Source of the DNA: Bacteroidota bacterium
GTDB taxonomy: Bacteria > Bacteroidota > Bacteroidia > UKL13-3
DNA: 64,000 nucleotides
Direction of reading: 5' to 3'
Assembly: GCA_034439655.1 (NCBI GenBank)
Contig: JAWXAU010000159.1
Coordinates: 22,526 to 86,525, forward strand
In this document: positions 1-64,000 of the stretch, piece after piece
How positions within the stretch are numbered: the stretch's first letter is position 1
Layout of the letters: each line of letters opens with the position of its first letter
Made by a program: the position numbers and the translations under genes
The notes under the pieces: generated by a model
Seen by the model: the letters and a program-made list of their open reading frames with translations, nothing else
What the model was told of the DNA's origin: nothing
The model's database searches: none

Positions 1-1122
1 GACACTAGCATTACACATACTTTTAGCGGACCAGGCACCTATAAAGTTTTATTAACCGCTTTTGATAGTTTGGGTCTATACTTCGATACTATTTCTATGT
101 ATATAGGAGTTGATAGTGTGTTAAAGGCAACTATTGCAACTGCTAACCAAACTATTTGTCCCGGTGAAATTGTGCAATTGGTTTCTACAGTTAATTTGGT
201 GGGAGGTGCCACCGTAATTTGGCAACCCGGAGGCAGTCTCATAGATTCCACGTCATTGGTGGTGGCTGCAAAACCAAATAATACTACGCGATACAAATTG
301 ACCTATAGTAGAAACGGTTGTAGTGATACAAATTCTGTTTTGATAACGGTGCTTGCCCCTCCATTATTTGATATACTATTCGACACGGTTTGTTTTGGTA
401 CTCCTACTTTTATCAGAACCGCACAAAATATTTCTTCCACACTTAATTTTATTTGGGATTTGGGAGATGGCGACACCAGTACTAGCAAAACCCCCATGCA
501 TACTTATGCAAAAGCGGGTGATTATAATGTAACCATTACCGCTACACAGGGAATTTGTTCGCAATTATCTTCCAGAACCATTACCGTAAAACCGCTACCG
601 GAAACAATTTTTTCCTATTCACCAAACGAAATATTTTTTGATAATCCCAAAATTACTTTTGTAGACGGGGGGAAGGATATTGCTCGTCGTTTATGGGATT
701 TTGGCGATGGAATTACCGATACAGATTCTGTAGTAGTTCATAATTTTTTAGATACAGGGTATTATAATGTTTCACTCATTAATTTTAGTGCTTTTGGTTG
801 CACAGACACTGTTTCCCAAACTATATTAATTAGACCCATTATACTACTTTATGTACCCAATGCATTTACCCCAAACAGGCAAGGCCCTATCGAAAACGAA
901 ACATTTTACCTTACTTGCAACGACCATTTGCCAGAGTTTCATTTTGTTTTATATAATAGATGGGGCGAAAAAATATATGAGACCTTCGATCAAAAATTTG
1001 TTTGGGACGGTACTTTTAAAAACAAGCCAGTTGAAGCAGGACTCTTTATTTGGAGAATGAATTTCCGAATCTCTGCCGAGAAAGGTGAAGTAAAAACTGG
1101 TGAATTAATTTTATATAGATAA
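1..1122 (+). CDS. PKD-domain cell-surface protein with T9SS type-B (gliding-motility-associated) C-terminal sorting domain; 5'-truncated by window edge
   Basis: Frame 1 is open from nt 1 (DTSITHTFSGPGTYKVLLTAFDSLG = PKD signature). Second PKD-like motif HTYAKAGDYNVTITATQGICS. C-terminus LYVPNAFTPNRQGPIENETF...YNRWGEKIYE...WDGTFKNKPVEAGLFIWRM matches the type-B T9SS CTD (TIGR04131-like). Confidence 0.8.
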   Translation, partial: DTSITHTFSGPGTYKVLLTAFDSLGLYFDTISMYIGVDSVLKATIATANQTICPGEIVQLVSTVNLVGGATVIWQPGGSLIDSTSLVVAAKPNNTTRYKLTYSRNGCSDTNSVLITVLAPPLFDILFDTVCFGTPTFIRTAQNISSTLNFIWDLGDGDTSTSKTPMHTYAKAGDYNVTITATQGICSQLSSRTITVKPLPETIFSYSPNEIFFDNPKITFVDGGKDIARRLWDFGDGITDTDSVVVHNFLDTGYYNVSLINFSAFGCTDTVSQTILIRPIILLYVPNAFTPNRQGPIENETFYLTCNDHLPEFHFVLYNRWGEKIYETFDQKFVWDGTFKNKPVEAGLFIWRMNFRISAEKGEVKTGELILYR

Positions 1123-1604: not shown

Positions 1605-1616
1605 TAGAAATTATAA

Positions 1617-27677: not shown

Positions 27678-29948
27678 TCAATGAAACACCAACACCTTAC
27701 CCACCTTATGTTGAAACGCGTCACTCGTATTTGCGAAGATGAGATACACCCCTGTATGAACACGCTCGCCTTTAAAATTTTTGATATCCCAAGTGGCAAT
27801 GCCACCGCTTGATTGTATCTCGTTTACGATGTTTCCTACAGCATCTGTTATCTTGATATTAGAATTATCGATGAGTCCTTTAATAGTTACATTGCCATGA
27901 TAGTTAGAGTTTACGGGATTGGGAAATATAACAAGACTATCATAGTTTTCTGCACCTTGGTTGGCATCACCTTTTACAGATACCATTCCTTTGTCGGTAG
28001 ATATAAATACCTCGCCAGTGGTAGGATTCACGCCAATACGTGATACAAAATTAGATATAAGCGGGCTATTGTCTTTGGTATAATTTTTCAATATTTTCTG
28101 TCCATCGGCACTAATCAAATATGCCCCATTTCGTGTGCCCACCCACTTGCGATTTGCAGGATCAACAGCTACACAGTTTACCACATCCTCCCCAAAAAGC
28201 CATTGCGGTTTGCCATTTACTGTTATCACAATTCGCTGTGCATCGAAATTGGTTTTTGTAGAAAATATATTGCCCGGTGAATAAAAAACTACCAAGCCTT
28301 TTTTGGTGGCCACCCACATATTGCCCTCTCTATCTTTGGCTACCTGCGATACTTCCAAATCGGGCAATAGCCCGCCCCCTACATCAGTTCCCAATAATTT
28401 GGAACGTGGTGGCCCGGGATTATTATTATTATTACCTTCGTCGAAAACTATGATACCTTTTCCGCGTGGTGCAACCATCCATTTTTGGCCAAGATCGTCG
28501 AGAACAATATCTACAAATACATCGGATATACCTGATAAGGAACCTAAATTATATGATTCCCATTTATAGTTGGTATCCATTTTTACTATTACATCCTTAG
28601 TGCCGGGATTTGAAATCCAAAGGTTTCCTTTGTCATCGAAAGTGAGACCACTAATTTGAAAAATAGAATAGGTGCCTAGTTTTAAACTATCCAATTTACA
28701 CCCATTAACTCCAGGAATAAATGCTTGCGTTACTTTGTTGTTCACCATCTCAATTAACCCATACCCGAATGAGCCGATATATACTTTTTTGTTAAATGGA
28801 TTCACGGCTATTTTATAAAAGTCACGCATATTATCCATGATAGGATCGGGCTGTGTATAGTTTATCCATTTCTCACCGTCGTAAAGCGAGAAACGATCAT
28901 TCCCATATAATGGCGAAAATATTTGGTTAGGACCCGTGGAGGCCGTCCACAGGTTAGTTTCATCGAAGCACATATCGGTTAGCCTTTTGCTTGTGGGGCC
29001 ATTGGGAGAGATAAACCCCAAGTTTCCATTCGCTTGATATACGATTAACCCGTACGCATAGTCAGCTATATAAATATCGTCATTCTTTATTTGAATAACA
29101 TGCCTTTTTTGTACTTCCACAATTGCTTTAACCAAGCTTTTGTTTTTTAATATTATAATACTATCACCTTTGTTCACAATCAAACTACCATAGTTACTTT
29201 CCAAACTATATAACAGACTTTTTCCTATACTATAATAGTTGCTAAAAACACCATTAGCATAAGTTTGGAGTGTACTATCTACGCCAACTACAATTGTGTT
29301 TTCATGATTAATTATATGTGAACAGCCACCCCCTTGGTATATATACTTCCACTGATGGTAATCGGCTAGGTTAGGTGAAAGGATAGATGCGGATATGATA
29401 CCCGTAGGAGTAGCGGCAAATATTGAATCCTCTTTGATGGTTAGCGAATTTATTTCTACCGAACTTCCTCCCTGTCCTAAATTTTCATACGATTCCGATA
29501 TTTCGCGTTTATCTAAATCGAATCGAACAATACCAAAACTACATGACAGATAAGCAAAATTCTTATGATAATATATATGATTTATTTGTTTCTTACCAAT
29601 AATAGGTGTTTTTAAAATATCGGGGTAATGTGAAACATTCTCGTTTTCTATAATATCAATATTGGTATTAGCATAAGCAACCAAGAATAATTTTTTGCCC
29701 TCATTGTATCTTATCAGTGTAGCCTCCGTTTCTCCCAGTCCTTCCACAGTGGTAAAAGTGCGAACTGTATTATAGGTGGGGTCATAAATAAAAAGACCGC
29801 TATTGGTTGCAGCCCACACCTCACCACTTCCCTCGGTTACATTGTTTACATGCGTAAAAGGCATGTGGGCTTTCCATGTTCCAATTCTCTGTGCTGCCAC
29901 ATTGCCCAAAAAAAACATGCACAAAATGTATAAATTTATTCTTCTCAT
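27678..29948 (-). CDS. secreted beta-propeller (two-component-regulator-propeller-like repeats) protein with T9SS type-A C-terminal sorting domain
   Basis: Signal peptide. Repeated W/Y-containing propeller-blade motifs. C-terminus FPNPVNSNYHGNVTIKGL...GVYLIFANTSDAFQHKVGKVLVFH matches the Por_Secre_tail (type A CTD). Confidence 0.6.
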   Translation of the reverse strand: MRRINLYILCMFFLGNVAAQRIGTWKAHMPFTHVNNVTEGSGEVWAATNSGLFIYDPTYNTVRTFTTVEGLGETEATLIRYNEGKKLFLVAYANTNIDIIENENVSHYPDILKTPIIGKKQINHIYYHKNFAYLSCSFGIVRFDLDKREISESYENLGQGGSSVEINSLTIKEDSIFAATPTGIISASILSPNLADYHQWKYIYQGGGCSHIINHENTIVVGVDSTLQTYANGVFSNYYSIGKSLLYSLESNYGSLIVNKGDSIIILKNKSLVKAIVEVQKRHVIQIKNDDIYIADYAYGLIVYQANGNLGFISPNGPTSKRLTDMCFDETNLWTASTGPNQIFSPLYGNDRFSLYDGEKWINYTQPDPIMDNMRDFYKIAVNPFNKKVYIGSFGYGLIEMVNNKVTQAFIPGVNGCKLDSLKLGTYSIFQISGLTFDDKGNLWISNPGTKDVIVKMDTNYKWESYNLGSLSGISDVFVDIVLDDLGQKWMVAPRGKGIIVFDEGNNNNNPGPPRSKLLGTDVGGGLLPDLEVSQVAKDREGNMWVATKKGLVVFYSPGNIFSTKTNFDAQRIVITVNGKPQWLFGEDVVNCVAVDPANRKWVGTRNGAYLISADGQKILKNYTKDNSPLISNFVSRIGVNPTTGEVFISTDKGMVSVKGDANQGAENYDSLVIFPNPVNSNYHGNVTIKGLIDNSNIKITDAVGNIVNEIQSSGGIATWDIKNFKGERVHTGVYLIFANTSDAFQHKVGKVLVFH

Positions 29949-42025: not shown

Positions 42026-42160
42026 TATATAACAGGTATATCAAAACAAAGAAAACATTCTTATTGCATAAAAACTTGGTGAAATTAAATGTTGATCTCG
42101 CTTTTTTGTTATCATATATATATATATCACTATATTTGTAGTAATTATAATAAAAATTTA

Positions 42161-47879: not shown

Positions 47880-48599
47880 TTATCCACCAAATCTCATCAC
47901 CTTAGTCGCATTCATATATATTCTAATATCGGGAGCATTTAATATTTGATTGGTAGGTATGAGCAAATATCTGATTTTGATACAGGTAATCAAACTTCCA
48001 GTTTTCAATTTTGATATAGCAGTTTTCATTTCTTTCGTGAACACAGCACCTTTGGCATATAGCGTATCAAACTTTGTATTATTGTTGAGCACCATCGCAA
48101 ATTCTACTACGCCACCCCTAAATATATCGTCGGCAGGGAAGGTGGCTGAGAGGTGGCCATAAGCCATTAGGTTCAGTTTCTCTGCAACACTGTCAGGTAT
48201 TACATCGTTTATTTTTATTAAAGGTTTAGGGACAGGACGTACTATATATTTTTTGTTGAGCAACAATACATTTTCGCCTTTTGAGTTGGTACCGTATATG
48301 TGCATGTTTGCAAATATAGCATTGTTCAAACCTTCTATCACCCACTCACTATCATTACGTCCCGATAGATATCGGGTTGCTTTTGCACCTTCCATGCTTA
48401 TATTACTTATTTTGCCGATAGAATTCGTAATAACAAATCTTTGCTTCATTCCTATATATAATACATTCACATTAGGAAGCACAGAAACTTCTTGCATGCT
48501 TGCTATTACTTTAATGATTCGAATAGAATCTTTTTGTGCAAAAAGGCAAATTGGAAAAAAGGCGAACGCCACCCATCCGCCACGGCGGAGTAGTGGCAT
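47880..48599 (-). CDS. hypothetical secreted protein
   Basis: Signal-like MPLLRRGGWVAFAFFPICLFAQ. The N-terminal codons lie in a GC-rich palindromic segment. Confidence 0.3.
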   Translation of the reverse strand: MPLLRRGGWVAFAFFPICLFAQKDSIRIIKVIASMQEVSVLPNVNVLYIGMKQRFVITNSIGKISNISMEGAKATRYLSGRNDSEWVIEGLNNAIFANMHIYGTNSKGENVLLLNKKYIVRPVPKPLIKINDVIPDSVAEKLNLMAYGHLSATFPADDIFRGGVVEFAMVLNNNTKFDTLYAKGAVFTKEMKTAISKLKTGSLITCIKIRYLLIPTNQILNAPDIRIYMNATKVMRFGG

Positions 48600-48680
48600 C
48601 CAGCCTCTTACAAAACACCTGCATCTGTATGCTGACATATCTTTATAACGTATTAATTAATTTTTTATTGTATAAAATCA

Positions 48681-50444: not shown

Positions 50445-51014
50445 TTAATAGTTTTTGAAAATGTTACGTAATTTTTCCAATACACGGTACATTCGAGTTT
50501 TGCAGGTAGCCTCGGGAATGTCAATAATTTGGGCTATTTCGGCAAATGGCCGCTGCTCAAAATAACGCATCTCCACCAACCATAGCTCATCGGCATCAAG
50601 TTGGTTCAGGGCTTTGTATAATAGTTCATCGTCCTGCACCTGTGTGTCGGTCTCGCTCAACAACGGTGGTAATTCTTCGCTTTGCAGGTTAATAGTGCGT
50701 TGCACTTTGTTCTTGCGGAACATCATATTCATTTCGTTCACTGCAATGCGAAACATCCAAGCCATAAATGGCAAACCCTTGTCTCTATATGAATCCAACT
50801 TTACTAAAGCTTTCAGAAAAACCTGTTGGGTTACATCTGCCGCTTCATCTTTGCTATTGAGCCTACGGTATACGAATCGGAATAAATCTTTATAATACCG
50901 ATTGTATAGATGCTCAAATGCAGCAGGGTCTTTGCGTGCAGCACTTACCCATTCACTATCGTTGTTGGGCTTGTGCTGTGTGGTACTCATTTGGGTTTGT
51001 GATATAATGGCCAT
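50445..51014 (-). CDS. RNA polymerase ECF-type sigma-70 factor
   Basis: Region 2 (FEHLYNRYYKDLFRFVYRRL...DVTQQVFLK) and region 4 (ELWLVEMRYFEQRPFAEIAQII...TCKTRMYRVLEKLR). Confidence 0.85.
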   Translation of the reverse strand: MAIISQTQMSTTQHKPNNDSEWVSAARKDPAAFEHLYNRYYKDLFRFVYRRLNSKDEAADVTQQVFLKALVKLDSYRDKGLPFMAWMFRIAVNEMNMMFRKNKVQRTINLQSEELPPLLSETDTQVQDDELLYKALNQLDADELWLVEMRYFEQRPFAEIAQIIDIPEATCKTRMYRVLEKLRNIFKNY

Positions 51015-51263: not shown

Positions 51264-51842
51264 TTAGGCCCCAGCAGCCCACTTCGCTGCATAACTCGCA
51301 GCAATATCTACAAAGTTTTTCATGCTCTTATCATATTGTAGATTTCCTTTCGAGCTTCCCGTTTCATCAATATGTTCGTGGGTACTGTAGCCCTCAAAAT
51401 AACGGGGACATATAAAACTATGGTAATTCATAATCCCCAAAACTTTGTTCAGCATAATACCCATTTGTATAATGGGCATCCTGCCACCACGACCATTGGA
51501 AACACCCGCCAGGGCAAATACTTTATTATGCCACATGGTCGTATATTCTTTGCCCGTCATTTGGTTGAAGAAGTTTACAATCTCTGCACTAGGCATCCAG
51601 TTATATTCTGGCGAAAGTATAAAAACCAATTCCGCTTTTTCCATATCGTTGTATAATGTTTGCTGGAAATTACTCAAACTTCCATGCTCCATTTTTCCCT
51701 GGCCTTCTAGTGGAATATCATAATGAGCAAAGTCTATTACACTAACTTCGTGATGTTCCTTCGCCAAGCTTTCTATAGCTTTGGCTAGTTTAACGGTATT
51801 AGAATTCCAGCGGGGTGAACCCGAGATGATGCAGATATTCAT
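51264..51842 (-). CDS. NAD(P)H-dependent FMN reductase-like oxidoreductase (flavodoxin-like fold)
   Basis: MNICIISGSPRWNSNTVKLAKAI matches the NADPH-dependent FMN reductase family N-terminus. 192 aa. Confidence 0.7.
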   Translation of the reverse strand: MNICIISGSPRWNSNTVKLAKAIESLAKEHHEVSVIDFAHYDIPLEGQGKMEHGSLSNFQQTLYNDMEKAELVFILSPEYNWMPSAEIVNFFNQMTGKEYTTMWHNKVFALAGVSNGRGGRMPIIQMGIMLNKVLGIMNYHSFICPRYFEGYSTHEHIDETGSSKGNLQYDKSMKNFVDIAASYAAKWAAGA

Positions 51843-52123: not shown

Positions 52124-52250
52124 TATACCAATTCTTAACCTAAAATAGTCCTCCGCCTGTGGCGGATTTGGTTTGTAGAATGGTAATGCCGAACTACAAT
52201 ACATTTAGTCCCTTTCTTTTGGACTATTATATATTGAGTTTCGGTATTAA
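52124..52250. repeat. interspersed repeat element, copy D (short form; flanked by aaagggac/gtcccttt inverted repeat)
   Basis: tataccaattcttaacctaaaatagtcctccgcctgtggcggatttggtttgtagaatggtaatgccgaactaca...ctttcttttggactattatatattgagtttcggtatta. Confidence 0.8.
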
Positions 52251-52366: not shown

Positions 52367-55300
52367 CTATCTAATCAAAGTCAGCGACCCAATTGTATTA
52401 TATAAGCCATTAGGATACAGCTTGCCTGGCCATACACTTCCATCAATAAAGGTAGCGTCAATTTTCCAAACATAAACATCTTGCTTGCAGGGTTTTCCCT
52501 TCCAAGTTCCGTCCCACGATTCTTTGGGTTTGGTGCCCTCCAATTCGGTGCTCTCCCAAATTAATTCACCCCAAGTAGTAAATACACGTACATGATACGT
52601 TTGCAATCCCACACCCTGCGGTTGGAATACTGCTGCATCGTTTTTAAATCCATCAGGGCTCATCGCATTGCTCACCCACAATCCTTTCATCAGCTCCACA
52701 TGTATTGTTTGTACAAAAGTATCATAACAACCAAAATTGGTATTCACGATTAAAGTTACTATATAATCTTTGGGTTGTTGATAGCGATGTGTCGGATGTT
52801 CATCGACCGATTGTGTACCATCGCCGAAGTTCCAGAAGTAGGAAATTGCTCCCACACTTTGGTTGGTAAATTTAATGGTGCCCGATGGTGGTGGCCCATC
52901 ATCGACCCATGTAAAACCTGCTAATGGCAAGGGGTATACGATAATCGTATCTTCATTCGCTGTATCAAAACAGTTACCATTTTTTATAATTAAAGTTGGC
53001 ATATAAGTTCCCGCTTTATCATATATATGCGTAGGCGATGCTATAATACTACCTTGCCCATCGTTAAAATTCCAGAAATTGAAAGTATTATTGGTGCTTA
53101 CGTTTTCAAATTCTACCACCAAAGGTTCGCAACCTGCATGTGGTTTCAATTTAAAAATTGCTTTGGGTTGTATCGCTACTATATAAGGCAAGGTCATAGA
53201 GTCCATGCAACCCGCAGTAGTAATAGCTGTGAGCACAACATTATAGGTTCCATTATTTATATATATTGCAGTAGGACTTGTTAATGTGGATGTCTTCCCA
53301 TTTCCCAATTCCCAAATATATGCCGTAGCGTTTTGACTTATATTAATACAATTTGCAGTAATTGGAGTATCGCATGCTGCGGTTGGATTTATATAGAAGT
53401 TCGCAGTAGGATCTTGATATACTACTGCATGGTGTTTTGAAGTATCACTACAACGATATTGGTTGAAAGTTATGAGGTTTGGATAATAATTCCCTGGCTG
53501 TATATAACCATGAGTGGGCGATGCAAGAGTAGAATTATTATTTACACCACCGCTTAAAGGATCATCAAAATCCCATAACCAACTCACTGCATCGCTGCTA
53601 CTTTGGTCGGTAAATTTAAGAATAAGTTGCACACATTCTGCAGTATCACTCAAACTGAAATCAGATTTTGGCTTAGGGGTAACTGTATATATATGATTGG
53701 TGGAATCGCTACAGCCATAGTCAGAAGTAACCCATAGTCTTACTGTATAATTTCCAGCAGTATTATAGAAGGTTGATGGGTTCTTAAGTACAGATGTTTT
53801 CCCATTTCCAAAATCCCAGAACGATTTTAATGCTCCAAAATCAATGGTACTTTGGTTAAAATAATCGTAAGCTTGATTGTTCACACATTGCGAATCTTGG
53901 TTCACTGCAAATAAGGCAACAGGCATAGCACGCACTACTACTGCACGTTTCAGCGTGTCCACACAACCCATATCCGAAGTGGCAATGAGAGAAATTATAT
54001 AAGTTCCTGCCACACTATAACTATGTGTTTGTTGACCACTACCACTGTTTATAGTGCTATTACCATCGCCATAATACCAATCGTAAGTCATGGTGCCACT
54101 TAGTATACTACAGTTGTTTGTATATATAAATGAATTCCCTGTGAGACATTGGTCCGTATCATTAATAGCAAATGCTACTGTGGGTTTGGGCCATACTGTA
54201 ATTTGTTTGGTAATAGAATCTTCACAACCTAATTGTGTGGTTACAACCAATTTTACATTATAAGTTCCTGCACTTGTATATACATGCGAAGGTGATTGTG
54301 CGGTTGATGTTTTACCATCACCGAAATCCCAAGCGTAGAAAAGGTTTCCGCCAGGTATGGTGGTTAAATTTATATAAGAAAAACTATTAATATTCAAACA
54401 TTGTGATTGTGTATTGATAGCAAAATCTACCGTAGGTTTGGGAGCTACTATAATACTATTTGTAACAGAATCTTTACAACCAAAATCGCTAATCGCAACT
54501 AGTTTTATATCATACATTCCATAGTTTGCATAAGTATGTGATACATTCTTAGAACTATTGTTAATGGATGTTTGAGCATCGCCAAAGTACCAGTCATACT
54601 GCATGCTTCCACTAAATATCGTACTGTTATTGGTATATATAAAATTTTGATAATTCACACATTGCATCGAATCATTCACCGTGAATATAGGTGAAGGTTT
54701 GGGCCAAACTATAATAGTATGGGTAACAGAATCTGTGCACCCAAAACTACTGTTTACTTTTAGTTTTATATTATATGTTCCTGCTGTGGCATAACTATGC
54801 TTTACCGCAGATTGATTGTTCCCTGTATTTTGTGTATTGCCATCGCCAAAATCCCAGAAAAGACTGAGGGTGCCATAAGGTATAGTAGCGGTTGGTGTGT
54901 ATTTAAATGTATTGCCGTTGAGACACATATTGGTATCGCTCAATATAAAATCTAATGTTGGTTTTGGACGAACATACACCGTTTTTGTGAGTGAATCCAC
55001 ACATCCATTATCCGTTGTTGCATACAATGTTACTTTATATACTCCAGTATCTGCATAAGTATATGTTGGGTTTGTAGCAGTGGAGTTTTGTCCATCACCG
55101 AAAAGCCAATTATAATCATTATAACCACTGCTCACACTAGATGAATTTGTGAATGAGAAAAACTGACTGTTCACACATTGATCAGTATCATTAATAGCAT
55201 ATACCATGTTTGGTTTAGGCCACACTATAATAGTATGTGCAGCCGAATCTATACAACCTTGTGTAGTGGTTGCCAGTAATCGAACTATATATGTTCCTGA

Positions 55301-58300
55301 AACTGTATAACTATGATTTGCAGCAGTAGTACTTGCTACTATAATATTTTGTTTTCCATCACCCCACTTCCAGGTGAAACTAGTCAAACCTGCTGCGGCA
55401 CTAGCATTTGCAGTAAAATTAAACTGTTGTGTATTTACACATTGCAATGAGTCGTTCACACTAAAATCAACAAGCGGAAGTTTGTTTACTACTATTTGTC
55501 GGGTAGCAGAATCAATACAGCCGTCAGATCCCGTCATCGTCATTATCATAGTATATGTTCCTGCTGTGAACCAATTATGTTTTATGGTACGTCCTGTGTC
55601 GGTAACACCATCGCCAAAATCCCATTCCACTTTTTGTGGATTTACATTGGGGCTTTGATAGGTTCCCTTAACACCCAAACATAATATCGTATCAATGGCA
55701 ACAATTTTTAAAGTATCATTGCCACCAATCTTAATTAATTTGGAAGTAGAATCCACACAACCATTTACAGTGGTAACTTTTAATTTGAGTTTATATATTC
55801 CAGGTTTTGCCCAAGTATGATTTACGGAGTTAAATACGTTAGATGTTTGGCCGTCGCCGAAATCCCAAACGGCTGCAGCAGCATTGCTGCTCGATATATT
55901 ATTGAATGACAATGTTCCGGGGAAACAAGCAAATGTATCAATGGCACTAATACCCGCTTTTGGCTTCGCATATACTGTTATAGTGGTAAACGCAGAATCG
56001 CTGCAGCCATTTACATTGTTATTAACTAGACGAACTTTGTAAGTAGTATCGTTTCCTAAAGTAGTATATGTTTGTTGTGGATTGATATTGGTTGAAGTAT
56101 TTCCATTCCCAAAATCCCAGAAATAATTGTTGGTATGGGTAGAACCCAATGCACTAAAATTAACTACCAAAGCTTCGCAACCATTGGTGGCAGAAGCTGA
56201 CAATGATGGGACAGGTTTATTATATATAGTTATATATTTACTAAAAGTGTCAACACAAGTCTGACCCGTAGAATCAATATTGCGGGCACTAAGTATCACT
56301 TTATATATTCCACCACTATCATATAAATGATTTGGACTTGTAGCAATGGAAGTATCGCCATCTCCAAAATTCCAACTATAACTATTGGCATTAATTGTTT
56401 TATTGGTGAAATATACAGTTCCAGGTTCACAATATTTTCCTGAATCACTAAAGCTCACGATTGGAGGGTCGGTAACAAGGATCGCAATATATATAGAAGT
56501 ATCACTACAGGCATTTGCGGCATTCATCTCCACATTATATATTCCTGCTTTGGTAAAAGTCCATTGTGCATTTTTGGTATTCGTTCCATTCACACTATCA
56601 AACTTCCATGTAAACGAATTTGCACCTGTAGTATTGTTGGTAAAGGTTACTGTAAGTGGATTACAACCTTGTCCGTTTGCTGGTAATATAGAAGTGAGGG
56701 GAACAATACTATTCGGATATACAATTAACTGATGTGTTTGACTATCGACTCCACATTGATTATAAGCCCAAAGTTTCACATAAAATGTATCGGTACTTCC
56801 TACTATATAAGTATGTGTTCTGTTCAATTTATTTTTAACGGTATCGATGGGGGTTCCGTCGCCAAAATCCCAAACCATATAGTCGGTAACTAAGTTAGAA
56901 TCGATACCCAAGGTAGTATTTACAAAAACTGCTTTAAAGGGCGAACAACCTACTTGCTTAAGCGGCGTAACAAAGGCATAAGGTGTTGTTCTTATTCTCA
57001 CAGAGTCTATAATAGTTGCAGTATCACAATTATTCCATGCGGTGAACTTAACTATATAAGTACTGTCTTTCCCTGTTTTGTTTAAACCATAATTTACGGT
57101 ACTTGGATTTAATAAATTAGAACTATCGCCATTCCCAAAAAGCCACTTATATTTTACATGCGTACCTGCTAAATTATTGGTAATAAATCCTGTGAATTTC
57201 ACATTGGGATTACAGGTAAGTGTATCACTTTGTGTAGTGGTAATATGGGGCGGTTCAAGTACTGTAAGCCTAGCACTATCAATAGTTATACGGCATTCGT
57301 TCACCGCAGTGAGTTTCAGTTTATAGATACCTTCATTTGTATAATTATGCGAAAAATTATTTTTAACCGTAGTAGTTAAAAATGTAGTATCTCCAAAGTC
57401 CCAAAAGAAAGTATCTACATTTCCGAAGGATAGATTTTGTATATTTAGCGTAGCAGTTCCGCCATGAGTGCATAATAAAGTATCTGATATACTAAACTGA
57501 GAAGTTGGTCCGGGCTTCACGTTGATAGTGCGGTTCACCGTGTCTTTACAACCAAATGATGATGTAACAAAAAGTGTAATAGTATATACTGTATCTTGCG
57601 TATTGCTTGAGTTATAAGTATGTGTCGGGTTTGTTGCAGTATCAGCATTTCCATCACCTAAATCCCAATTGTAATTCATGGAAGTATTGGAAGTGCTTTG
57701 GTTGGTAAACGTAACTAAAACAGGGCCACAAGAATTAATGCTATCGGCCACAAAAGCTCCACGGGGCCTAGGGTGCACGGTGAATGTATTTGTAATAGTA
57801 TCTTTACAACCATTATTTCCTGTGGCAATTAATTTAATGGTATATATACTATCAGCAGTGCCTTTATTTTCAGGAACAGTAACTGTTGGATTTGTTGCAG
57901 TGGTACTGCTAATTGTTATATTGGTATGCGTAGTACTCCACTTATAACTTAATGCATACAATGAATTATTCTGCAAATTAAATACCGCTGGACCACAGCT
58001 ATTGGTAGGGTTCACATCGAATGATGCAATAGGTCTGCTGGGCAAAACAATCGGCAAAGAAATAGAATCGAAACATCCAAAAATAGATTTGGCAATTTGT
58101 TTTACTGTATAATTTTTATAGGCTCCTGTTTTGTTGTCAGGTAAATTTATAGTGGTAGAAGTTGATGCACTATCATTTGCTATAACCACACTTGTATCTG
58201 GAATTACTCGCCACAAGTATGATTTAATGAGCGGAACAAGCGATGAACTATTGGTTGCGGTAAATGCGAAAGGCCAACAAATGGTGTCCGTTGATAAACC

Positions 58301-61300
58301 AAAATTAGGATTGGGAAGTGGCTTTGCCGTCACCGTTTTACTAATGCTATCTTTACAACCCGAACCTGCAGATACCACCAATTTAACCGTATAAATCGAA
58401 TCGACGATTCCTGAATTATTATAGTTAATATTTGTTGGGTTTTGAATTGTTGAAGTTTGCCCATTGCCTAGTGTCCACTCATATACCAAACCACTGGTAG
58501 GCGTTGACGCATCCGCAAGATTAATTACAAATTGATGGCAGCCTACGGTATCACTTCGCACAAAATTTGGAGTAGGGTTAGCGATGGTTCTGAACCATAG
58601 CTTTTGCGTATCATTTTTGCATCCGTTCTTACTAATTGCCACCAAACTAATTAATATAGAATCGTTGGCATTGGTGATACTGGTGCCTGGAAAAGATAAA
58701 GTAGCACCCGTTTGCGTTGCACCAAGTTGTGTAGCATTTGTAAACCATTTGTATTGGCTATTGGCAGTACCATAATGCGTCGCAGAAATTTTAGAAGTCG
58801 GAATATTATAGGGAGCACAACTCACGCTATCAGTAGCGGTGAAGTATGCTTTTGCATCAGGTCTTATAGTTAAGTAAGTAGATTGTGTATCTAAACAATT
58901 ATATATATTGGTAGTGGTGAGTGAAATATTATATATACTATCATTTACTGAGGTATTATAATAAATTAAACTCGTATCTCTACTTGTTGCAGAAATTCCG
59001 TTACCATAATTCCAATTGTAGTTTAATCCATTATAAGGAGAAGAATTATTGCTAATATATATCCTCACGGGTCCACAAGTATCAGCACGTGACAACGCCA
59101 GTGCAGCAAGAGGTGTGGGATATAGGTTATAGGACTTGATAATTGTATCTTTACATCCTCCACTCGTAGTTGCAATATTTTTGATTGTATATGTTTTGAT
59201 AACACTATCTATATAATTTCCAAAGGTGAATGTGGGATTTGTTGCCGCACTGCTGCTTAAAAAAACTCCAGTGGCCGGAGCTATACTCCAATTGTAACTG
59301 GCAGCAAATTGACTACTATTACTTACAATAAATGTATCGGGGCCGCAGGAAGCAGTATCGCTAGTGAAAGCTGCAATGGGACGTGTTTTCACAGTTAAAG
59401 CAGATATCGTCGAATCTATACAACCTTTGTTTGTGGTAGCAATTAATCGTATATTAAAATTACTATCACTTCCTGTTTGATTATCGCCAAATATAAATGA
59501 GGGGTTTTTTATTATACTACTTTTCACCACAGCTCCTGAATATATAATATTCCAATTCCAAGTTGATACCGTAGGTACTGCTGCCGTATTATTGGAGGGG
59601 CTTAAAGTAACAGGTGCACACACACTACTGGTATAAGTAAATGTAGGGGTTGGCTTTGGATTTATAACAACTGGTTTTGATAAAGTATCAATACATCCAA
59701 AAGTAGAAGTGATGGTTAATTTATTTATATAAGTTCCTCCTGTTGGATATATATGTGTAGGGTTCACTACAGAAGAACTATCCCCATCTCCAAATTTCCA
59801 ACTATATATGTTTCCCGATGCTGATGAGAAGGTAGATGAATCTGTAAATGTTGTTGTTAAACGCTGACAAACCGTGTCGTTACTGTATTTAGCTAAGGGT
59901 CTACTATGTATAGTAAATGTTTTTTGTATAGAATCGGTACATGCACTTGCAGTGGTACTATATAACCAAATGTTAAACGAACTATCGATTCCCGATTGAT
60001 TGCCATTAAAAGTAAAAGTAGGATTTGCTAATGTAGAAGTTTTATATAAACTTGAACCATCATTCACATTCCATTTCCAACTTGATATAGCCGGCGATGC
60101 TGCGGTATTATTGCTAGGGCTAATGCTAGCAGGAACACAAAAATCGGTACCGACCGTAAACATAGGTTGTGATGATGGGTGAACGACGATATTTTTAGCA
60201 ATAGAATCTTTACAACCTGCTCCGGCAAGACCTATCAATTTTACTTTCCATGTGGTATCAGAAGTACCAGTATTGGTAAATGTATAATATAAGGAATCGG
60301 TTTGTGTACTTGTATTACTTGAGTTGCCAAACTGCCATTGATAGGCCAAGCCTGTGGGTGTTGATGTATTGGTAAACAGTACAATTAAGGGATTACAACC
60401 AATCGTATCACTTCTCACAAAATTGGGTTGTGGATTGGTAATAGTCTTGAACCACATTTGTATACTATCATCCTTACAACCTTTGAGCGAAGTAACTTTT
60501 AATTTAATCAATACCGAATCGTTTGAGTTGGTAATAGTATAGCCTGGGAAGGTAGCCGCAGAACCAATCAGACTTCCATTCGCATACCACTTATAAGTAC
60601 TATTGGCATTCGTAAATAGCTGGGTTGAAATAACAGAAGTGTCAATCACGAAAGGAGCACAGCCCGATGTATTGGTAGCATTATATATAGCTTTTGCATT
60701 GGGTTTTATATTCACGGTGCGTACACTATCATCAAAACACCCCAAACTTGATTTAGCTTTAAGTGTAATGGAATATCCAGAATCATTTCCTGAAGTATTA
60801 TAATATATAATTGAAGTATCTTTAATAGTTGAACTCACGCCATTTCCAAAATCCCAATTATAGGTGGTGCCCGCAGAGGGAGTGGTTGTATTTGTTAAAT
60901 ATACACGCAAGGGCCCACAGCTATCTATATTACTCATGGTAAATTTAGCATTGGGGTCAGCATATACTTTTACTGTATCATTCAATGAGTCCTTACAGCC
61001 ACCAGCATTTGCAATAACGAGTTTTATAATATAATTGATAGTACTACCCGTTTGATTTCTTGCTAAAGTTATTATGGGCTGGGCAATTGTCGTATTACTA
61101 AATGAAGTACTCGGATTGCTGCTCCAGTTATAACCTGTCGCATTCAAACTATTATTTTGAATCGTGAATACTATAGGGCCACAACTATCATTCACAAAGG
61201 TATACAATGCTTTTGGTCGACTCTTTATAGTTATAGTAACCGTGGTCGAATCTTTACAACCATCTTTGCTAGTAGCTTTTAATTTTATAGTATAATTAGA

Positions 61301-64000
61301 ATCGGTACCACTTTGTATATCGGGGAAAGTAAAGGTAGGCTGCTTCGCTGTATCGTTCGATATAGTAACACTACTATTACCTTGTATACTCCATTTCCAA
61401 GCAGTAATAAAGGGAGAAGCCGCTGAACTATTAGTTACAGCACTCGTATAAGGTGCACAAAAACTAGTTGCTCCAAAAGTAAAACTTGGTATAGGCATCG
61501 CATATATAGTTATATTTCTCGACAAACTATCTTTACAACCTTTGCTATTTGTTATAATTAATTTCACACTATATACTCCTGCACTGCTATATGTTTGTGC
61601 GGCTGGTGAAGCTGAAGTGGAAGTATTTCCATTTCCAAAATCCCAAGCATAGTTTGTAATAGTTCCACCATTTGCAGTGGAGGTACTATTATAAGAAAAA
61701 CTATTCCCTGTTAAGCATTGATCGGTGTCATTTATAGTAAACGAAACACTTGGCCCATTCAATACTTTCATCGTTTTTGAAACACTGTCTTTGCAACCAT
61801 TATTACTTATAGCAATTAGTTTTGTTATATAAGTTCCTGTATCTGCAAAACTATGTGTAGGGCTTGTGCTGTTTGATGTTGCGGTATCTCCAAAAGTCCA
61901 TTTAAAAATAGAAATACTTCCCAAGGTGATAGAGGTCAAATTGGTATATACAAAACTATTTCCACTAATACATTGTATACTATCATTCACGCTAAACGAA
62001 ACTTGTGGTTTGGGATATACAATTATATTTTTTGACAAACTATCACTACATCCAAAGCTATTGGTGATCACTAATTTCACAGTATAGGTTCCGGCACTTG
62101 TATAAGTATGGCTAGGATTTGTAGCAGTTGATGTATTGCCATCGCCAAAATACCATTTGCGAGAAGTGATGCTAGAACTGGGTGCGGTAGATGAATCCGT
62201 AAACTGTATAGCCGAATCTAAACATTTATTTACAGCACTAAATTTCACAACGGGTATATCAAAAACCTTCATTTTTTTTGTTGCAGTATCAGTGCATCCA
62301 TTCGCATCGGTATAAGTATATTTTAAGGTAAATAAGCCCACACCCGAAGTACTCGGATTAAACACACCACCACTGCTAACGGCTGTTCCACTCCAAGTGC
62401 CACCCGTAGGGCTATATCCTGAGAGTGTAAAATTTCCATTGTTCAAACATATACTATCTATACTTTTTCCCGCATTCACGGTAGGCGGATTAAATACCGT
62501 AAAACTTCGCGTTGCAGAATCTGTTCCGCACTCATTTGTTGCTTTTGCTACCACCGTATAAGTACCCGCGGAACTATATACAATTGTTCCTGCACTTTGT
62601 GTGTTCTTCGTAGCAGGACTACCACCTGTAAATGTCCAACTATAGGCAGAGATAGTTGAATTATTACTATTATAGGTTGCCGAAGGCGAAATACTATAAG
62701 GCTTACAACCATTTGCAATCGCTGGCAAGGTTACCGCTGGTTTTGTTTTTACCTTGATAGTATCATATATATAAACTGTAGTGCAGGGATTGGTAACTGC
62801 AAGTTCTACCACAAACAATCCAGCAGAAGTGAATTTGAAAACAGGATTTGTGGAAGTATTTGAAGTGCTACCTGTATAGGAGAAACCTGTGGTAGGGCTC
62901 ACGATCCACACATAGGTTAATCCTTTGCCCGTACTTTGATTTATCATAGTGTCTGTAAACGTCACACAACCAGAATCGGGCTTGGGCGTGAAGGCGGCAA
63001 CGGGTATATCAACAACATATATAGTTTTTACTGCCGAATCAAGTCCGCATGTATTCCCTTTATTTGCTACAATTATTTTTGTAGTATAGGCTCCTGTATC
63101 AGTATACTGTGCAGTAAAAGTAGAAGTTCCCCAAAAAGCACTGTTATTACTCGTATACCATTTTGTTGAATCGCCCATTGAGCCGCTGGTTATACTTGTA
63201 TTAGCAGTGGGAGACATTTTCCACAAGCGTTTTTTTGTTGAATCGCAACTCGAAGCAGTAGGGAGAAAAACTCCTGCCAATGAATTATCAGTGAATGTTA
63301 CGGTACTGTTTTTACAAATGGTATCGGCACTGCTCGAAAGCTTTGCTACCGGTCTTTGATTTACCGTAATGGGCTCAACTGTTCCAGCAGAAACACCGCA
63401 AGGATTTGTAGCATCGATACGCAAATGGAATGAATTGGCAAAACTTCCTTGACTTGTATATCCGCAACTTCCCCTGTTAAAAGTCCACAACACGGTATCT
63501 GGCGGTGGATGCGAATAACTCAGGGAAGTATTCCCATCGTTCGACGAAACTATATAAGTTGTACCGGGTGGGTTACTACTCGTGCTTGTAACAGGGAATT
63601 TTAATTGTATAGGTCCGCATAAATTTGTTGTACCTCCTGGGTTTGCAAAGCCTACAGATGGGTTTGTGCCATTAAAAACCGAATATGTTTTTGTATTGAT
63701 GCATTTATTTTTTCCAGTAACAGTTACTTTCAAAGTAAAAAACCCCAGATTATTGTACGTATTGGTATCACTGCTGAAAGAAGCATTGGTAATTGTATCT
63801 TTTCTTCCATTATCCCAATCAATAAAATATACTGAATCGGTAGAGGAGGTAGTAGATGATTTATCTATTTGTAATAAAAAACTTCCCAAACTACAATTTG
63901 TAAAAGAAACGGTAGAGTTCACGTCAACCACTGTGCCATCAGGTCTTTCCTTAACACGAACTGTTTTGGTGGCAGAATCTTTACAACCTGCATTCGACGT
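52367..64000 (-). CDS. giant (more than 3,870 aa) PKD-repeat adhesin-like protein with T9SS type-B C-terminal sorting domain; N-terminus beyond window end
   Basis: Reading frame is open to nt 64000 (the listed Met at 63931 is an internal GTG). Dozens of about 80-90-aa repeats each containing W.FGDG..S....P.H.Y...G.Y.V.L......GC.DS. C-terminus ...NAMSPDGFKNDAAVFQP...WGELIW...WDGTWKGKP... = gliding-associated type-B CTD. Confidence 0.85.
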   Translation of the reverse strand, partial: TSNAGCKDSATKTVRVKERPDGTVVDVNSTVSFTNCSLGSFLLQIDKSSTTSSTDSVYFIDWDNGRKDTITNASFSSDTNTYNNLGFFTLKVTVTGKNKCINTKTYSVFNGTNPSVGFANPGGTTNLCGPIQLKFPVTSTSSNPPGTTYIVSSNDGNTSLSYSHPPPDTVLWTFNRGSCGYTSQGSFANSFHLRIDATNPCGVSAGTVEPITVNQRPVAKLSSSADTICKNSTVTFTDNSLAGVFLPTASSCDSTKKRLWKMSPTANTSITSGSMGDSTKWYTSNNSAFWGTSTFTAQYTDTGAYTTKIIVANKGNTCGLDSAVKTIYVVDIPVAAFTPKPDSGCVTFTDTMINQSTGKGLTYVWIVSPTTGFSYTGSTSNTSTNPVFKFTSAGLFVVELAVTNPCTTVYIYDTIKVKTKPAVTLPAIANGCKPYSISPSATYNSNNSTISAYSWTFTGGSPATKNTQSAGTIVYSSAGTYTVVAKATNECGTDSATRSFTVFNPPTVNAGKSIDSICLNNGNFTLSGYSPTGGTWSGTAVSSGGVFNPSTSGVGLFTLKYTYTDANGCTDTATKKMKVFDIPVVKFSAVNKCLDSAIQFTDSSTAPSSSITSRKWYFGDGNTSTATNPSHTYTSAGTYTVKLVITNSFGCSDSLSKNIIVYPKPQVSFSVNDSIQCISGNSFVYTNLTSITLGSISIFKWTFGDTATSNSTSPTHSFADTGTYITKLIAISNNGCKDSVSKTMKVLNGPSVSFTINDTDQCLTGNSFSYNSTSTANGGTITNYAWDFGNGNTSTSASPAAQTYSSAGVYSVKLIITNSKGCKDSLSRNITIYAMPIPSFTFGATSFCAPYTSAVTNSSAASPFITAWKWSIQGNSSVTISNDTAKQPTFTFPDIQSGTDSNYTIKLKATSKDGCKDSTTVTITIKSRPKALYTFVNDSCGPIVFTIQNNSLNATGYNWSSNPSTSFSNTTIAQPIITLARNQTGSTINYIIKLVIANAGGCKDSLNDTVKVYADPNAKFTMSNIDSCGPLRVYLTNTTTPSAGTTYNWDFGNGVSSTIKDTSIIYYNTSGNDSGYSITLKAKSSLGCFDDSVRTVNIKPNAKAIYNATNTSGCAPFVIDTSVISTQLFTNANSTYKWYANGSLIGSAATFPGYTITNSNDSVLIKLKVTSLKGCKDDSIQMWFKTITNPQPNFVRSDTIGCNPLIVLFTNTSTPTGLAYQWQFGNSSNTSTQTDSLYYTFTNTGTSDTTWKVKLIGLAGAGCKDSIAKNIVVHPSSQPMFTVGTDFCVPASISPSNNTAASPAISSWKWNVNDGSSLYKTSTLANPTFTFNGNQSGIDSSFNIWLYSTTASACTDSIQKTFTIHSRPLAKYSNDTVCQRLTTTFTDSSTFSSASGNIYSWKFGDGDSSSVVNPTHIYPTGGTYINKLTITSTFGCIDTLSKPVVINPKPTPTFTYTSSVCAPVTLSPSNNTAAVPTVSTWNWNIIYSGAVVKSSIIKNPSFIFGDNQTGSDSNFNIRLIATTNKGCIDSTISALTVKTRPIAAFTSDTASCGPDTFIVSNSSQFAASYNWSIAPATGVFLSSSAATNPTFTFGNYIDSVIKTYTIKNIATTSGGCKDTIIKSYNLYPTPLAALALSRADTCGPVRIYISNNSSPYNGLNYNWNYGNGISATSRDTSLIYYNTSVNDSIYNISLTTTNIYNCLDTQSTYLTIRPDAKAYFTATDSVSCAPYNIPTSKISATHYGTANSQYKWFTNATQLGATQTGATLSFPGTSITNANDSILISLVAISKNGCKNDTQKLWFRTIANPTPNFVRSDTVGCHQFVINLADASTPTSGLVYEWTLGNGQTSTIQNPTNINYNNSGIVDSIYTVKLVVSAGSGCKDSISKTVTAKPLPNPNFGLSTDTICWPFAFTATNSSSLVPLIKSYLWRVIPDTSVVIANDSASTSTTINLPDNKTGAYKNYTVKQIAKSIFGCFDSISLPIVLPSRPIASFDVNPTNSCGPAVFNLQNNSLYALSYKWSTTHTNITISSTTATNPTVTVPENKGTADSIYTIKLIATGNNGCKDTITNTFTVHPRPRGAFVADSINSCGPVLVTFTNQSTSNTSMNYNWDLGDGNADTATNPTHTYNSSNTQDTVYTITLFVTSSFGCKDTVNRTINVKPGPTSQFSISDTLLCTHGGTATLNIQNLSFGNVDTFFWDFGDTTFLTTTVKNNFSHNYTNEGIYKLKLTAVNECRITIDSARLTVLEPPHITTTQSDTLTCNPNVKFTGFITNNLAGTHVKYKWLFGNGDSSNLLNPSTVNYGLNKTGKDSTYIVKFTAWNNCDTATIIDSVRIRTTPYAFVTPLKQVGCSPFKAVFVNTTLGIDSNLVTDYMVWDFGDGTPIDTVKNKLNRTHTYIVGSTDTFYVKLWAYNQCGVDSQTHQLIVYPNSIVPLTSILPANGQGCNPLTVTFTNNTTGANSFTWKFDSVNGTNTKNAQWTFTKAGIYNVEMNAANACSDTSIYIAILVTDPPIVSFSDSGKYCEPGTVYFTNKTINANSYSWNFGDGDTSIATSPNHLYDSGGIYKVILSARNIDSTGQTCVDTFSKYITIYNKPVPSLSASATNGCEALVVNFSALGSTHTNNYFWDFGNGNTSTNINPQQTYTTLGNDTTYKVRLVNNNVNGCSDSAFTTITVYAKPKAGISAIDTFACFPGTLSFNNISSSNAAAAVWDFGDGQTSNVFNSVNHTWAKPGIYKLKLKVTTVNGCVDSTSKLIKIGGNDTLKIVAIDTILCLGVKGTYQSPNVNPQKVEWDFGDGVTDTGRTIKHNWFTAGTYTMIMTMTGSDGCIDSATRQIVVNKLPLVDFSVNDSLQCVNTQQFNFTANASAAAGLTSFTWKWGDGKQNIIVASTTAANHSYTVSGTYIVRLLATTTQGCIDSAAHTIIVWPKPNMVYAINDTDQCVNSQFFSFTNSSSVSSGYNDYNWLFGDGQNSTATNPTYTYADTGVYKVTLYATTDNGCVDSLTKTVYVRPKPTLDFILSDTNMCLNGNTFKYTPTATIPYGTLSLFWDFGDGNTQNTGNNQSAVKHSYATAGTYNIKLKVNSSFGCTDSVTHTIIVWPKPSPIFTVNDSMQCVNYQNFIYTNNSTIFSGSMQYDWYFGDAQTSINNSSKNVSHTYANYGMYDIKLVAISDFGCKDSVTNSIIVAPKPTVDFAINTQSQCLNINSFSYINLTTIPGGNLFYAWDFGDGKTSTAQSPSHVYTSAGTYNVKLVVTTQLGCEDSITKQITVWPKPTVAFAINDTDQCLTGNSFIYTNNCSILSGTMTYDWYYGDGNSTINSGSGQQTHSYSVAGTYIISLIATSDMGCVDTLKRAVVVRAMPVALFAVNQDSQCVNNQAYDYFNQSTIDFGALKSFWDFGNGKTSVLKNPSTFYNTAGNYTVRLWVTSDYGCSDSTNHIYTVTPKPKSDFSLSDTAECVQLILKFTDQSSSDAVSWLWDFDDPLSGGVNNNSTLASPTHGYIQPGNYYPNLITFNQYRCSDTSKHHAVVYQDPTANFYINPTAACDTPITANCINISQNATAYIWELGNGKTSTLTSPTAIYINNGTYNVVLTAITTAGCMDSMTLPYIVAIQPKAIFKLKPHAGCEPLVVEFENVSTNNTFNFWNFNDGQGSIIASPTHIYDKAGTYMPTLIIKNGNCFDTANEDTIIVYPLPLAGFTWVDDGPPPSGTIKFTNQSVGAISYFWNFGDGTQSVDEHPTHRYQQPKDYIVTLIVNTNFGCYDTFVQTIHVELMKGLWVSNAMSPDGFKNDAAVFQPQGVGLQTYHVRVFTTWGELIWESTELEGTKPKESWDGTWKGKPCKQDVYVWKIDATFIDGSVWPGKLYPNGLYNTIGSLTLIR

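Follow-up and report, generated by a model that had tools for sequence, protein, structure and literature searches.

Type-B C-terminal domains (CTDs) are described as having conserved motifs, five in number (A-E), within their last 100 aa (PMC12618676). Type-B cargo requires a cognate PorP/SprF shuttle and remains bound to it, and for orphan type-B substrates the shuttle is one whose gene lies elsewhere (PMC12618676; PMC9143113). Flavobacterium johnsoniae SprB, a gliding adhesin of 6,497 aa, is a giant surface protein of repetitive build that carries a type-B CTD and has SprF as its shuttle. SprB's CTD and that of Fjoh_4750 are among those that send cargo to the gliding machinery; with the CTD of Fjoh_3952 the cargo is static, as are most Fjoh_1123 foci (PMC12618676). 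The orphan type-B cargo genes that depend on Fjoh_1677, a shuttle encoded at another site, have no adjacent sprF-like gene (PMC12618676). The Aureispira grappling-hook protein GhpA, a T9SS substrate of 5,898 aa, consists of approximately 52 Ig-like repeats, contains intramolecular disulfides as well as putative O-glycans, and forms a long rigid fibre (bioRxiv 10.1101/2024.01.29.577165). Features of its own are an N-terminal hook, a heptamer, and PorP/PorE homologues (ghpB/C) encoded directly downstream. Bacteroidota abound in giant PKD-repeat T9SS cargo proteins. Examples with a CHU_C/type-B CTD are, in Owenweeksia hongkongensis, a 'PKD domain-containing protein' of 3,800 aa (P0108) and, in Cytophaga hutchinsonii, the large CHU_ proteins.

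The giant protein analyzed here is encoded at the end of a 64-kb stretch of DNA (the window, i.e., the whole stretch under analysis) and is an ordinary, uncharacterised member of this known class. It is probably a cell-surface fibre of an uncultured Bacteroidota bacterium, approximately 4,143 aa long and composed of a signal peptide, 46 PKD (Ig-like) modules, and a divergent 'long' type-B CTD. The signal peptide, the tens of PKD modules, and the C-terminal sorting domain are common to the giant PKD proteins named above; the window protein and its nearest orthologues (P0095-P0097) differ from them in carrying a long CTD that scores below the model cutoffs. A search with the N-terminal 2,500 aa of the in-window protein as the query gave 497 proteins at E ≤ 1e-100. 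The gene alone matters little, as its class is abundant and the full protein is already deposited (MDZ4758821.1, named only "PKD domain-containing protein" by NCBI).

The giant gene and its PKD modules

The initial annotation had described an ORF of more than 3,870 aa that is open to the window edge, and this was confirmed: from 64000 downwards, no stop interrupts the minus-strand frame before the stop codon at 52367-52369, giving 3,877 aa in the window. The gene is intact, and the window holds its last 3,877 codons. Its features are as follows:

52367..64000, minus strand: giant gene, in-window part (3,877 codons and stop; frame open to the edge)
52691..64000, minus strand: PKD array, the tail of one module and 43 complete modules of ~85 aa each (Pfam, own-module HMM)
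57767..61495, minus strand: old higher-order repeat region (module identity matrix; 41-48% aa identities)
52370..52690, minus strand: 107-aa CTD, assigned as a 'long' type-B (CHU_C) T9SS sorting-domain variant, ending ...GSLTLIR

The GTG codon at 63931, given as the start in the ORF list, is an artefact of the start-codon requirement in ORF listing, and the minus-strand codons 5' of it (TSNAGCKDSATKTVRVKERPDGT) are open and bear the module motif. The start is located ~0.8-0.9 kb past the window end; in full, the gene runs to 4,143 codons with the PGAP start or 4,178 codons with the Prodigal start. Across the part that they share with it, P0094, P0214, and P0215 do not differ from the window fragment. 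By inspection, the N-terminus of the full-length P0214, which lies outside the window, is a Sec-type signal peptide (MSINRLIQILSLVGVLAPNSNAVSA|QAC), and the N-termini of the orthologues resemble it. The "many antisense plus-strand ORFs" reported for the gene were an overstatement, since just two of at least 90 aa lie inside it.

A very long, repetitive gene next to which a MAG contig ends (just upstream) might be a pseudogene or an assembly artefact of the repetitive region. Such an origin is extremely improbable here: no stop occurs in the 4,143-4,178 codons, orthologues of 3,985-4,140 aa are collinear with the giant protein, and the same sequence is present in three independent assemblies (the window, NCBI GCA_964566565.1, and JGI 3300020596), which were 99.99% identical with zero gaps over the 21.6 kb compared. 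Mis-assembly is also unlikely because the repeats are too divergent, the longest exact repeat in the array being 20 nt.

The proposed tandem PKD-like modules were borne out. In the Pfam scan of the 3,877 aa, tandem matches above the gathering score were obtained for PKD_4 (PF18911; 834.5 bits, 23 stretches) and PKD (PF00801; 451.4 bits, 20 stretches). A profile built from the protein's own modules (own-module HMM) delimited 43 complete modules of 77-99 aa each and, at the window edge, the tail of a further module, with gaps of mostly 0 aa between modules and a 107-aa tail after the last one; 46 modules were delimited in the full protein. The module consensus (...YKWDFGDGTSTSTATNPTHTYTNAGTYTVKLIATSSNGCKDSITKTITVYPKP) agreed with the pattern given in the initial annotation. 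Sequence matches of the array in the PDB were the ColH PKD domains. Each module has two conserved Cys, one near the module start and one in GC.DS. The motif D-S/T-[AILVMT], which is an O-glycosylation sequon of Bacteroidota (PMC8550257), was strongly enriched (86 observed, 22 ± 4 in shuffles) and stands directly after the second Cys in most modules. The Cys pair and the sequon in the modules suggest a rod that is stapled by disulfides and glycosylated, resembling the stem of GhpA. Sequence similarity to GhpA was detected in the CTD only.

Age and stability of the array

The DNA repeats had been considered prone to recombinational expansion and contraction. The gene would then be a contingency locus, in which the array grows and shrinks by recombination and the product varies in size or phase. 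What speaks for this are the 46 tandem modules and the DNA periodicity of ~250 nt, which was found in the autocorrelation at lags of 252-264 nt and is real but weak (z = 3-4). The repeats themselves do not fit. Tandem Repeats Finder detected no tandem array in the giant gene, the DNA copies within the array were 60-86% identical over ≤105 nt, and neither long near-identical units nor length polymorphism, the marks of recombination-prone tandem DNA repeats, were observed. At the protein level, the modules share 27% identity on average and 53% at most (identity matrix), and each module resembles its counterpart at the same position in an orthologue (P0095-P0097, 53-62%; P0098, 45%) more than it does its best paralogue (40%).

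Orthologues at 57-63% identity were collinear module for module and almost indel-free, and the alignment with P0095 and P0096 over >4,000 residues contained only 17-46 gap positions. Together with the short exact repeats and the gapless agreement between assemblies, this leaves a contingency locus hardly credible, and the claim of recombinational instability is not supported. The array is ancient and positionally conserved. An array of 46 modules can stay rigid over evolutionary time, its modules being 1:1 orthologous at 57-63% identity with hardly any indels, and this calls for caution in assuming length variation in long tandem-domain genes.

The old higher-order repeat involves modules 12-14 (window numbering), which resemble modules 19-21 at an offset of seven modules; module 10 resembles modules 15 and 17, and module 11 resembles modules 18 and 23. 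Conservation along the orthologue alignment was fairly even (0.29-0.67 per module), and a special conserved 'binding' region in the array was rejected on these grounds.

The C-terminal domain and T9SS context

Two further genes of the window are related to T9SS:

1..1122, plus strand: second PKD-repeat gene, 3' end (canonical type-B CTD at fragment residues 285-372)
27678..29948, minus strand: PorZ, T9SS attachment-complex component (NF052228, 587 bits; PF21544)

The gene at 1-1122 shares the architecture of the giant gene, as had been stated, with PKD modules and a canonical type-B CTD (TIGR04131, 37.1 bits, cutoff 35; PF13585, 47.8 bits). The gene at 27678-29948 had been noted for a type-A CTD; it is PorZ, and its type-A tail match is below the cutoff (20.6 vs 23 bits). 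PorZ and the second, canonical type-B cargo gene show that the source organism has a T9SS.

For the giant protein, a type-B CTD had been annotated, with a failure to match TIGR04131 named as evidence against it. The CTD indeed scored below the curated cutoffs of both TIGR04131 (19.7 bits, cutoff 35) and PF13585 (26.6 bits, cutoff 27), and the two models were absent from the whole-protein scans of the giant protein. The homology to the family is nevertheless clear. Alignments of 30 long-CTD sequences and 26 canonical type-B sequences, the latter including the CTD from 1-1122 of the window, were compared by hhalign and matched with 99.95% probability (E 8e-38, 96 columns). The giant-protein CTD was connected to canonical type-B CTDs by jackhmmer, and PF13585 was matched at E ≤ 0.01 by 30/30 long-CTD sequences. 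The domain ends at the last residue of the protein (...TLIR), it stood at the extreme C-terminus in all of the top 150 library matches, and the distant orthologue P0098 has a canonical CHU_C at the same place. The long form differs from the canonical one by two insertions, of 6 aa before WDG and of 10 aa (W.GK.Y..G) before the last strand, and by a degenerate PNAFTPNGDG block. In the giant protein, this block (motif A, PNAFTPNGDGxND) reads SNAMSPDGFKND, and the putative equivalents of motifs B-E in the alignment are VFTTWGELIW, WDGTWKG, DVYVWKI, and GSLTLIR.

The CTD is a beta-sandwich domain; its AF2 model was all-beta (pLDDT 92.3), and the model's Foldseek matches in the PDB were weak and generic Ig-like (best E 1e-3), the type-A CTDs of PorZ, PorU, and RemA among them. 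By sequence, the sole PDB match to the CTD profile was the CTD of GhpA (9flp, E 7.8e-5). In the genomic context of the relatives, a PorP_SprF gene directly adjoined four giant long-CTD genes (P0095, P0099, P0178, and P0109), i.e., it was found at 4/5 loci of long-CTD relatives. Because of the profile-profile comparison and these gene neighbourhoods, the CTD is assigned to the type-B (CHU_C/TIGR04131) family of T9SS sorting signals, as a divergent 'long' variant.

The sub-cutoff TIGR04131 and PF13585 scores, the NCBI name, the generic Ig-like Foldseek matches, and the lack of an adjacent shuttle gene (see below) would also agree with a protein that is not a T9SS substrate, in which the CTD is just another Ig-like structural domain and release or anchoring takes another route. 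Such a reading is very unlikely in view of the hhalign result, the constant extreme C-terminal position, the PorP_SprF genes beside the relatives, and the match to the CTD of a T9SS substrate. A divergent type-B sorting signal is therefore preferred.

The long-CTD subclass is widespread: at E ≤ 1e-30 it comprises 474 clusters (50% identity). Of the 30 sampled members, only two attained a score roughly matching the TIGR04131 cutoff, and the long CTD falls below the Pfam CHU_C cutoff about half the time. As it is mostly sub-cutoff on TIGR04131, such proteins are annotated just as 'PKD domain-containing'. This is an annotation blind spot: the subclass is homologous to type B and usually encoded beside a PorP/SprF gene, yet mostly missed by the TIGR04131 rule. 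Tentatively, the long CTD may even be a functionally distinct subclass of T9SS sorting signals, served by PorP/SprF shuttles of its own and perhaps sent to a separate place on the surface, although we consider this rather doubtful. Were it so, T9SS cargo censuses would under-count a class that contains many of the largest Bacteroidota surface proteins.

Gene neighbourhood and proposed role

The neighbours of the giant gene encode an FMN reductase and an ECF sigma factor, and the downstream side holds the following features:

51264..51842, minus strand: FMN reductase, downstream neighbour (the same neighbour follows the orthologue P0096)
52125..52250, plus strand: one copy of a structured repeat dispersed between genes, 117 nt past the giant-gene stop on its downstream side

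No PorP/SprF-like ORF was found in the whole 64-kb window or in L024, and no such gene was present within 10 kb of P0098 or P0096; among orthologues followed by the same FMN-reductase gene downstream, P0096 is the closest (54-63% identical to the giant protein). The upstream side of the giant gene is known for 223 nt (P0215), and no adjacent shuttle gene was observed in the window. Exact-DNA scans with the last 30-60 nt of the window gave no match in genome or metagenome contigs, and the locus search with the N-terminal 300 aa of the protein returned just relatives at 22-41% identity. Because no adjacent shuttle gene was found in the window, the protein would be expected to behave as an orphan type-B substrate, with its shuttle encoded elsewhere. 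In this it would resemble the cargo served by Fjoh_1677, the CTDs of which are canonical, whereas that of the window protein is long.

From these data, we infer secretion, disulfides, glycosylation, and adhesion as follows. The giant protein would be exported by Sec and fold in the periplasm, where the conserved Cys pair would staple each module; O-glycosylation at the D-S/T-[AILVMT] sequons is probable. The T9SS translocon and a shuttle of the PorP/SprF family would recognise the CTD, and the shuttle would extract the protein and keep it tethered to the outer membrane in the form of a rod, the length of which we estimate at ~150-200 nm (at ~4 nm per Ig-like domain). Its most likely role would be adhesion or surface coating.

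The initial annotation had gone further and named the protein an SprB-like, SprB-class mobile adhesin, of which an analogy is retained. Like SprB, the giant protein is large and repetitive, its CTD belongs to the same family, and PorP/SprF-type shuttle dependence is expected for both (PMC12618676; PMC9143113). These likenesses, and the delivery of SprB and Fjoh_4750 to the gliding machinery, would suit an SprB-type mobile adhesin that is loaded on the gliding track and then driven along the cell. We consider this improbable, as the body of the protein is made of PKD modules and not of SprB repeats (no PF13573 match in the Pfam scan at E ≤ 0.01), no sprC/sprD/sprF context and no porP were found in the window, no sprCDBF-type operon is present at the giant gene, the CTD is of a divergent subclass, and type-B cargo can be static, as with Fjoh_3952 and most Fjoh_1123 foci. 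Orthology to SprB itself was rejected (no SprB repeats, no sprF in the window). For a surface-anchored fibre, static display and carriage on the gliding track are alternatives that the sequence cannot tell apart.

The Rfam scan of the window returned nothing. The intergenic repeat at 52125-52250 contains a terminator-like hairpin (52152-52166), and two partial copies of the same repeat are located just upstream of the giant-gene start, outside the window.

Extent of the giant gene and its module array

The minus-strand frame was free of stops from the window edge at 64000 to the stop codon at 52367-52369, giving a fragment of 3,877 aa. The GTG start at 63931 in the ORF listing was an artefact of the start-codon requirement: the 23 codons ahead of it (TSNAGCKDSATKTVRVKERPDGT) contained no stop and carried the module motif, and the gene therefore extends past the window. 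In the Pfam scan, the fragment matched PKD_4 (834 bits, 23 stretches) and PKD (451 bits, 20 stretches), and no other real domain was found. An HMM built from the protein's own Cys-delimited modules, which is circular by construction, tiled the fragment as the tail of one module, 43 modules (77-99 aa, gaps mostly 0 aa), and a 107-aa tail, with the modules at 52691-64000 (-). Independent support came from the Pfam matches and from the PDB sequence matches of the modules, which were ColH PKD domains. The giant PKD-repeat frame open to the window edge, as described in the initial annotation, was thus upheld, and the module pattern given there agreed with the HMM consensus (PTASFTASDTSGCVPLTFTFTNNSTISSNALSYKWDFGDGTSTSTATNPTHTYTNAGTYTVKLIATSSNGCKDSITKTITVYPK).

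The same DNA was present in an NCBI MAG (GCA_964566565.1) and a JGI metagenome (3300020596), 99.99% identical and with 0 gaps. The full-length protein was recovered by homology search with a 2,500-aa query: 4,178 aa by the Prodigal start (records P0094 and P0215) and 4,143 aa by the PGAP start (P0214, MDZ4758821.1, deposited as 'MAG: PKD domain-containing protein [Bacteroidota bacterium]'). Each record was identical to the window fragment over the shared part, and the full protein had 46 modules. The PGAP start gives an N-terminus resembling a Sec signal peptide (MSINRLIQILSLVGVLAPNSNAVSA|QAC), as judged by eye, and equivalent N-termini were seen in the orthologues. The gene is intact; a pseudogene or assembly artefact was ruled out by the full-length protein on record and the gap-free copies in other assemblies. 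The 2,500-aa query matched 497 proteins at E <= 1e-100, mostly of 2,000-4,300 aa and many with PF13585 or the type-A tail PF18962, so the architecture is common and already known; this member is itself public under a generic name and uncharacterised.

The DNA repeats had been described as recombination-prone and size-variable, which was not supported. Tandem Repeats Finder reported no array in the giant gene, the longest exact direct repeat was 20 nt, repeat families reached 60-86% identity over <=105 nt, and autocorrelation peaks at 252-264 nt had z = 3-4 only. Between modules, amino acid identity was 27% on average (maximum 53%). The four orthologues (P0095-P0098; 3,985-4,140 aa, 44-46 modules each, 37-61% local BLAST identity) were collinear with the giant protein: each module was nearest to the orthologue module at the same position, and P0095 showed a 1:1 correspondence for modules 1-38. 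The best partner module had 53-62% identity in P0095-P0097 and 45% in P0098, against 40% for the best paralogue within the protein. Global alignment gave 57% (P0095) and 63% (P0096) identity with only 17-46 gap positions over ~4,100 residues. Positional orthology and the few gaps show no concerted evolution and almost no module gain or loss over long evolutionary distances. Within the array at 57767-61495 (-), modules M12-14 resembled M19-21 at an offset of seven modules, and offsets of 5 or 2 were seen for M10, M15, and M17 and for M11, M18, and M23 (all 41-48% amino acid identity), an old higher-order duplication with a period of seven modules.

A long variant of the type-B C-terminal domain

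Whole-protein family scans of the fragment listed no C-terminal domain (CTD) family. When the last 111 aa were scanned alone, TIGR04131 scored 19.7 bits (cutoff 35) and PF13585 CHU_C 26.6 bits (cutoff 27). The initial annotation had assigned a type-B CTD and named a failed TIGR04131 match as evidence against it; the match does fail the cutoff, but the domain's homology to type B is clear. Jackhmmer over 215 retrieved proteins revealed a large group of 'long' (~108 aa) C-termini (..GLFVPNAF.P......F.PKG..L..Y...IF.TWG.L.WES..L...G.P.EGWDGT..G.P.PQDVYVWKI.A.F.DG..W.GK.Y........GTVTLIR.), grading into canonical type-B tails (PNAFTPNGDG.ND...IFNRWGE.IF....GWDG....VYVY......G.VTLIR). In hhalign, 30 long and 26 canonical sequences, the latter including the CTD of the window's 1-1122 gene, aligned over 96 columns with 99.95% probability (E 8e-38); the long form has 6 more residues before WDG and 10 more before the last strand. 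PF13585 matched all 30 long CTDs at E <= 0.01 and 16 at about gathering level, and only two reached about the TIGR04131 cutoff; the last two counts are approximate, with E-value thresholds derived from the giant protein's own bits-to-E relation. The distant orthologue P0098 had a canonical CHU_C at the equivalent position.

The long-CTD profile found 474 clusters at E <= 1e-30 among 1.84 billion representatives. Nearly all of the best 150 matches were end-to-end and at the extreme C-terminus of the host protein, and the hosts ran from fragments up to proteins of 5,370 aa. The AlphaFold2 model made with the long-CTD alignment was all-beta and confident (pLDDT 92.3, pTM 0.83); with it, Foldseek returned only weak Ig-like sandwiches, including the type-A CTDs of PorZ, PorU, and RemA. 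The sole PDB sequence match of the profile was the CTD of GhpA (9flp), a T9SS-secreted grappling-hook protein. The long subclass is largely overlooked by curated models, which is the only mildly new point of the analysis; it would be of moderate interest if the subclass proves functionally distinct.

Secretion and proposed role

The organism has a T9SS, as indicated by two genes:
27678-29948 (-), PorZ, T9SS attachment-complex component (NF052228, 587 bits)
ending at 1122 (+), second PKD gene, type-B with a canonical CTD, as initially annotated
The type-A CTD ascribed to the former stayed below the cutoff (TIGR04183, 20.6 vs 23 bits).

Cognate outer-membrane proteins of the PorP/SprF family draw type-B cargo from the translocon and keep it on the surface, and their genes usually adjoin that of the cargo; of the 12 type-B genes of F. 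johnsoniae, 9 have such a neighbour, and the three orphans use a common shuttle encoded elsewhere (PMC12618676; PMC9143113). Four giant long-CTD proteins had a PF11751 PorP_SprF gene directly alongside.

PorP_SprF genes beside giant long-CTD proteins
P0095: divergent, 222 nt apart
P0099: upstream, 44 nt apart
P0178: downstream, 80 nt apart
P0109: downstream, overlapping

No PorP_SprF gene lay within 10 kb at the P0096 and P0098 loci; P0096 and the window gene both had an FMN-reductase gene downstream. In the window, phmmer and a 4-sequence HMM detected no PorP/SprF-like ORF, and none turned up when 20 window proteins were scanned against Pfam and NCBIfam. As far as can be seen in the window and the 223 nt covered upstream, the giant gene thus resembles the orphan type-B substrates.

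The likeliest role, judged from sequence features, would be that of an adhesin or surface-coat component: the protein would be exported by Sec, translocated by the T9SS, and anchored in the outer membrane as a fibre of 46 Ig-like modules, ~150-200 nm long by our estimate at ~4 nm per domain. It contained 98 Cys, each module having one conserved pair. For the O-glycosylation sequon of Bacteroidota, D-(S/T)-(A/I/L/V/M/T) (PMC8550257), 86 occurrences were counted vs 22 +/- 4 in shuffled sequence; 31 of the 86 were right after Cys, almost all within the conserved GC.DS motif, and this placement suggests one glycan per module. The stem of GhpA consists of Ig-like repeats and carries putative O-glycans as well as intramolecular disulfides (bioRxiv 10.1101/2024.01.29.577165). 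The Cys pairs, as putative disulfides, and the putative glycosylation sites of the giant protein suggest a similar rigid, decorated rod. The proposed SprB-like mobile adhesin was an overreach: the Pfam scan of the fragment found no SprB repeats, the gene neighbourhood contained no spr operon, and static sites are a possible destination of type-B cargo too (PMC12618676).

Intergenic repeat and neighbouring genes

A dispersed, highly structured intergenic repeat (~165-190 nt) had a 34-nt core found 3 times in the window vs 0 expected.
14777-14941 (+), repeat copy
41857-42026 (-), repeat copy
52125-52250 (+), repeat copy
L024 1-208, copies outside the window, just upstream of the giant gene
The giant gene thus lies between copies, and the contig of the NCBI MAG ends within the upstream ones. 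In the RNA fold (z = -4.8) there were several hairpins, one of them terminator-like (TCCGCCTGTGGCGGA). Rfam gave no match; candidates for the nature of the repeat are a REP/MITE-like element and a terminator/sRNA module.

The PKD/type-B gene ending at 1122 was followed immediately, with stop/start overlap, by genes for a DsbD_N-like protein and a DsbD-like membrane thiol-disulfide reductase (1122-3695 +), and a thioredoxin gene (L012 8164-8631) lay beside the PorP/SprF gene at the P0095 locus. These neighbours may reflect redox maintenance of the Cys-rich PKD modules, or coincidence.

Beyond the FMN reductase, downstream of the giant gene, were:
50445-51014 (-), ECF sigma factor
48681-50432 (-), 583-aa protein, no family match
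47880-48638 (-), 252-aa protein, weak GldM C-terminus match (18.5 bits)
Their order was identical in the NCBI MAG copy (L001/L024), and they could be a sigma/anti-sigma module. Isoprenoid genes were scattered at 12403-14648 (-) and 45752-46765 (+): one for HMG-CoA reductase (385 bits), one weakly matching the UbiA prenyltransferase family, and one for polyprenyl diphosphate synthase. They indicate a mevalonate pathway in this Bacteroidota MAG.
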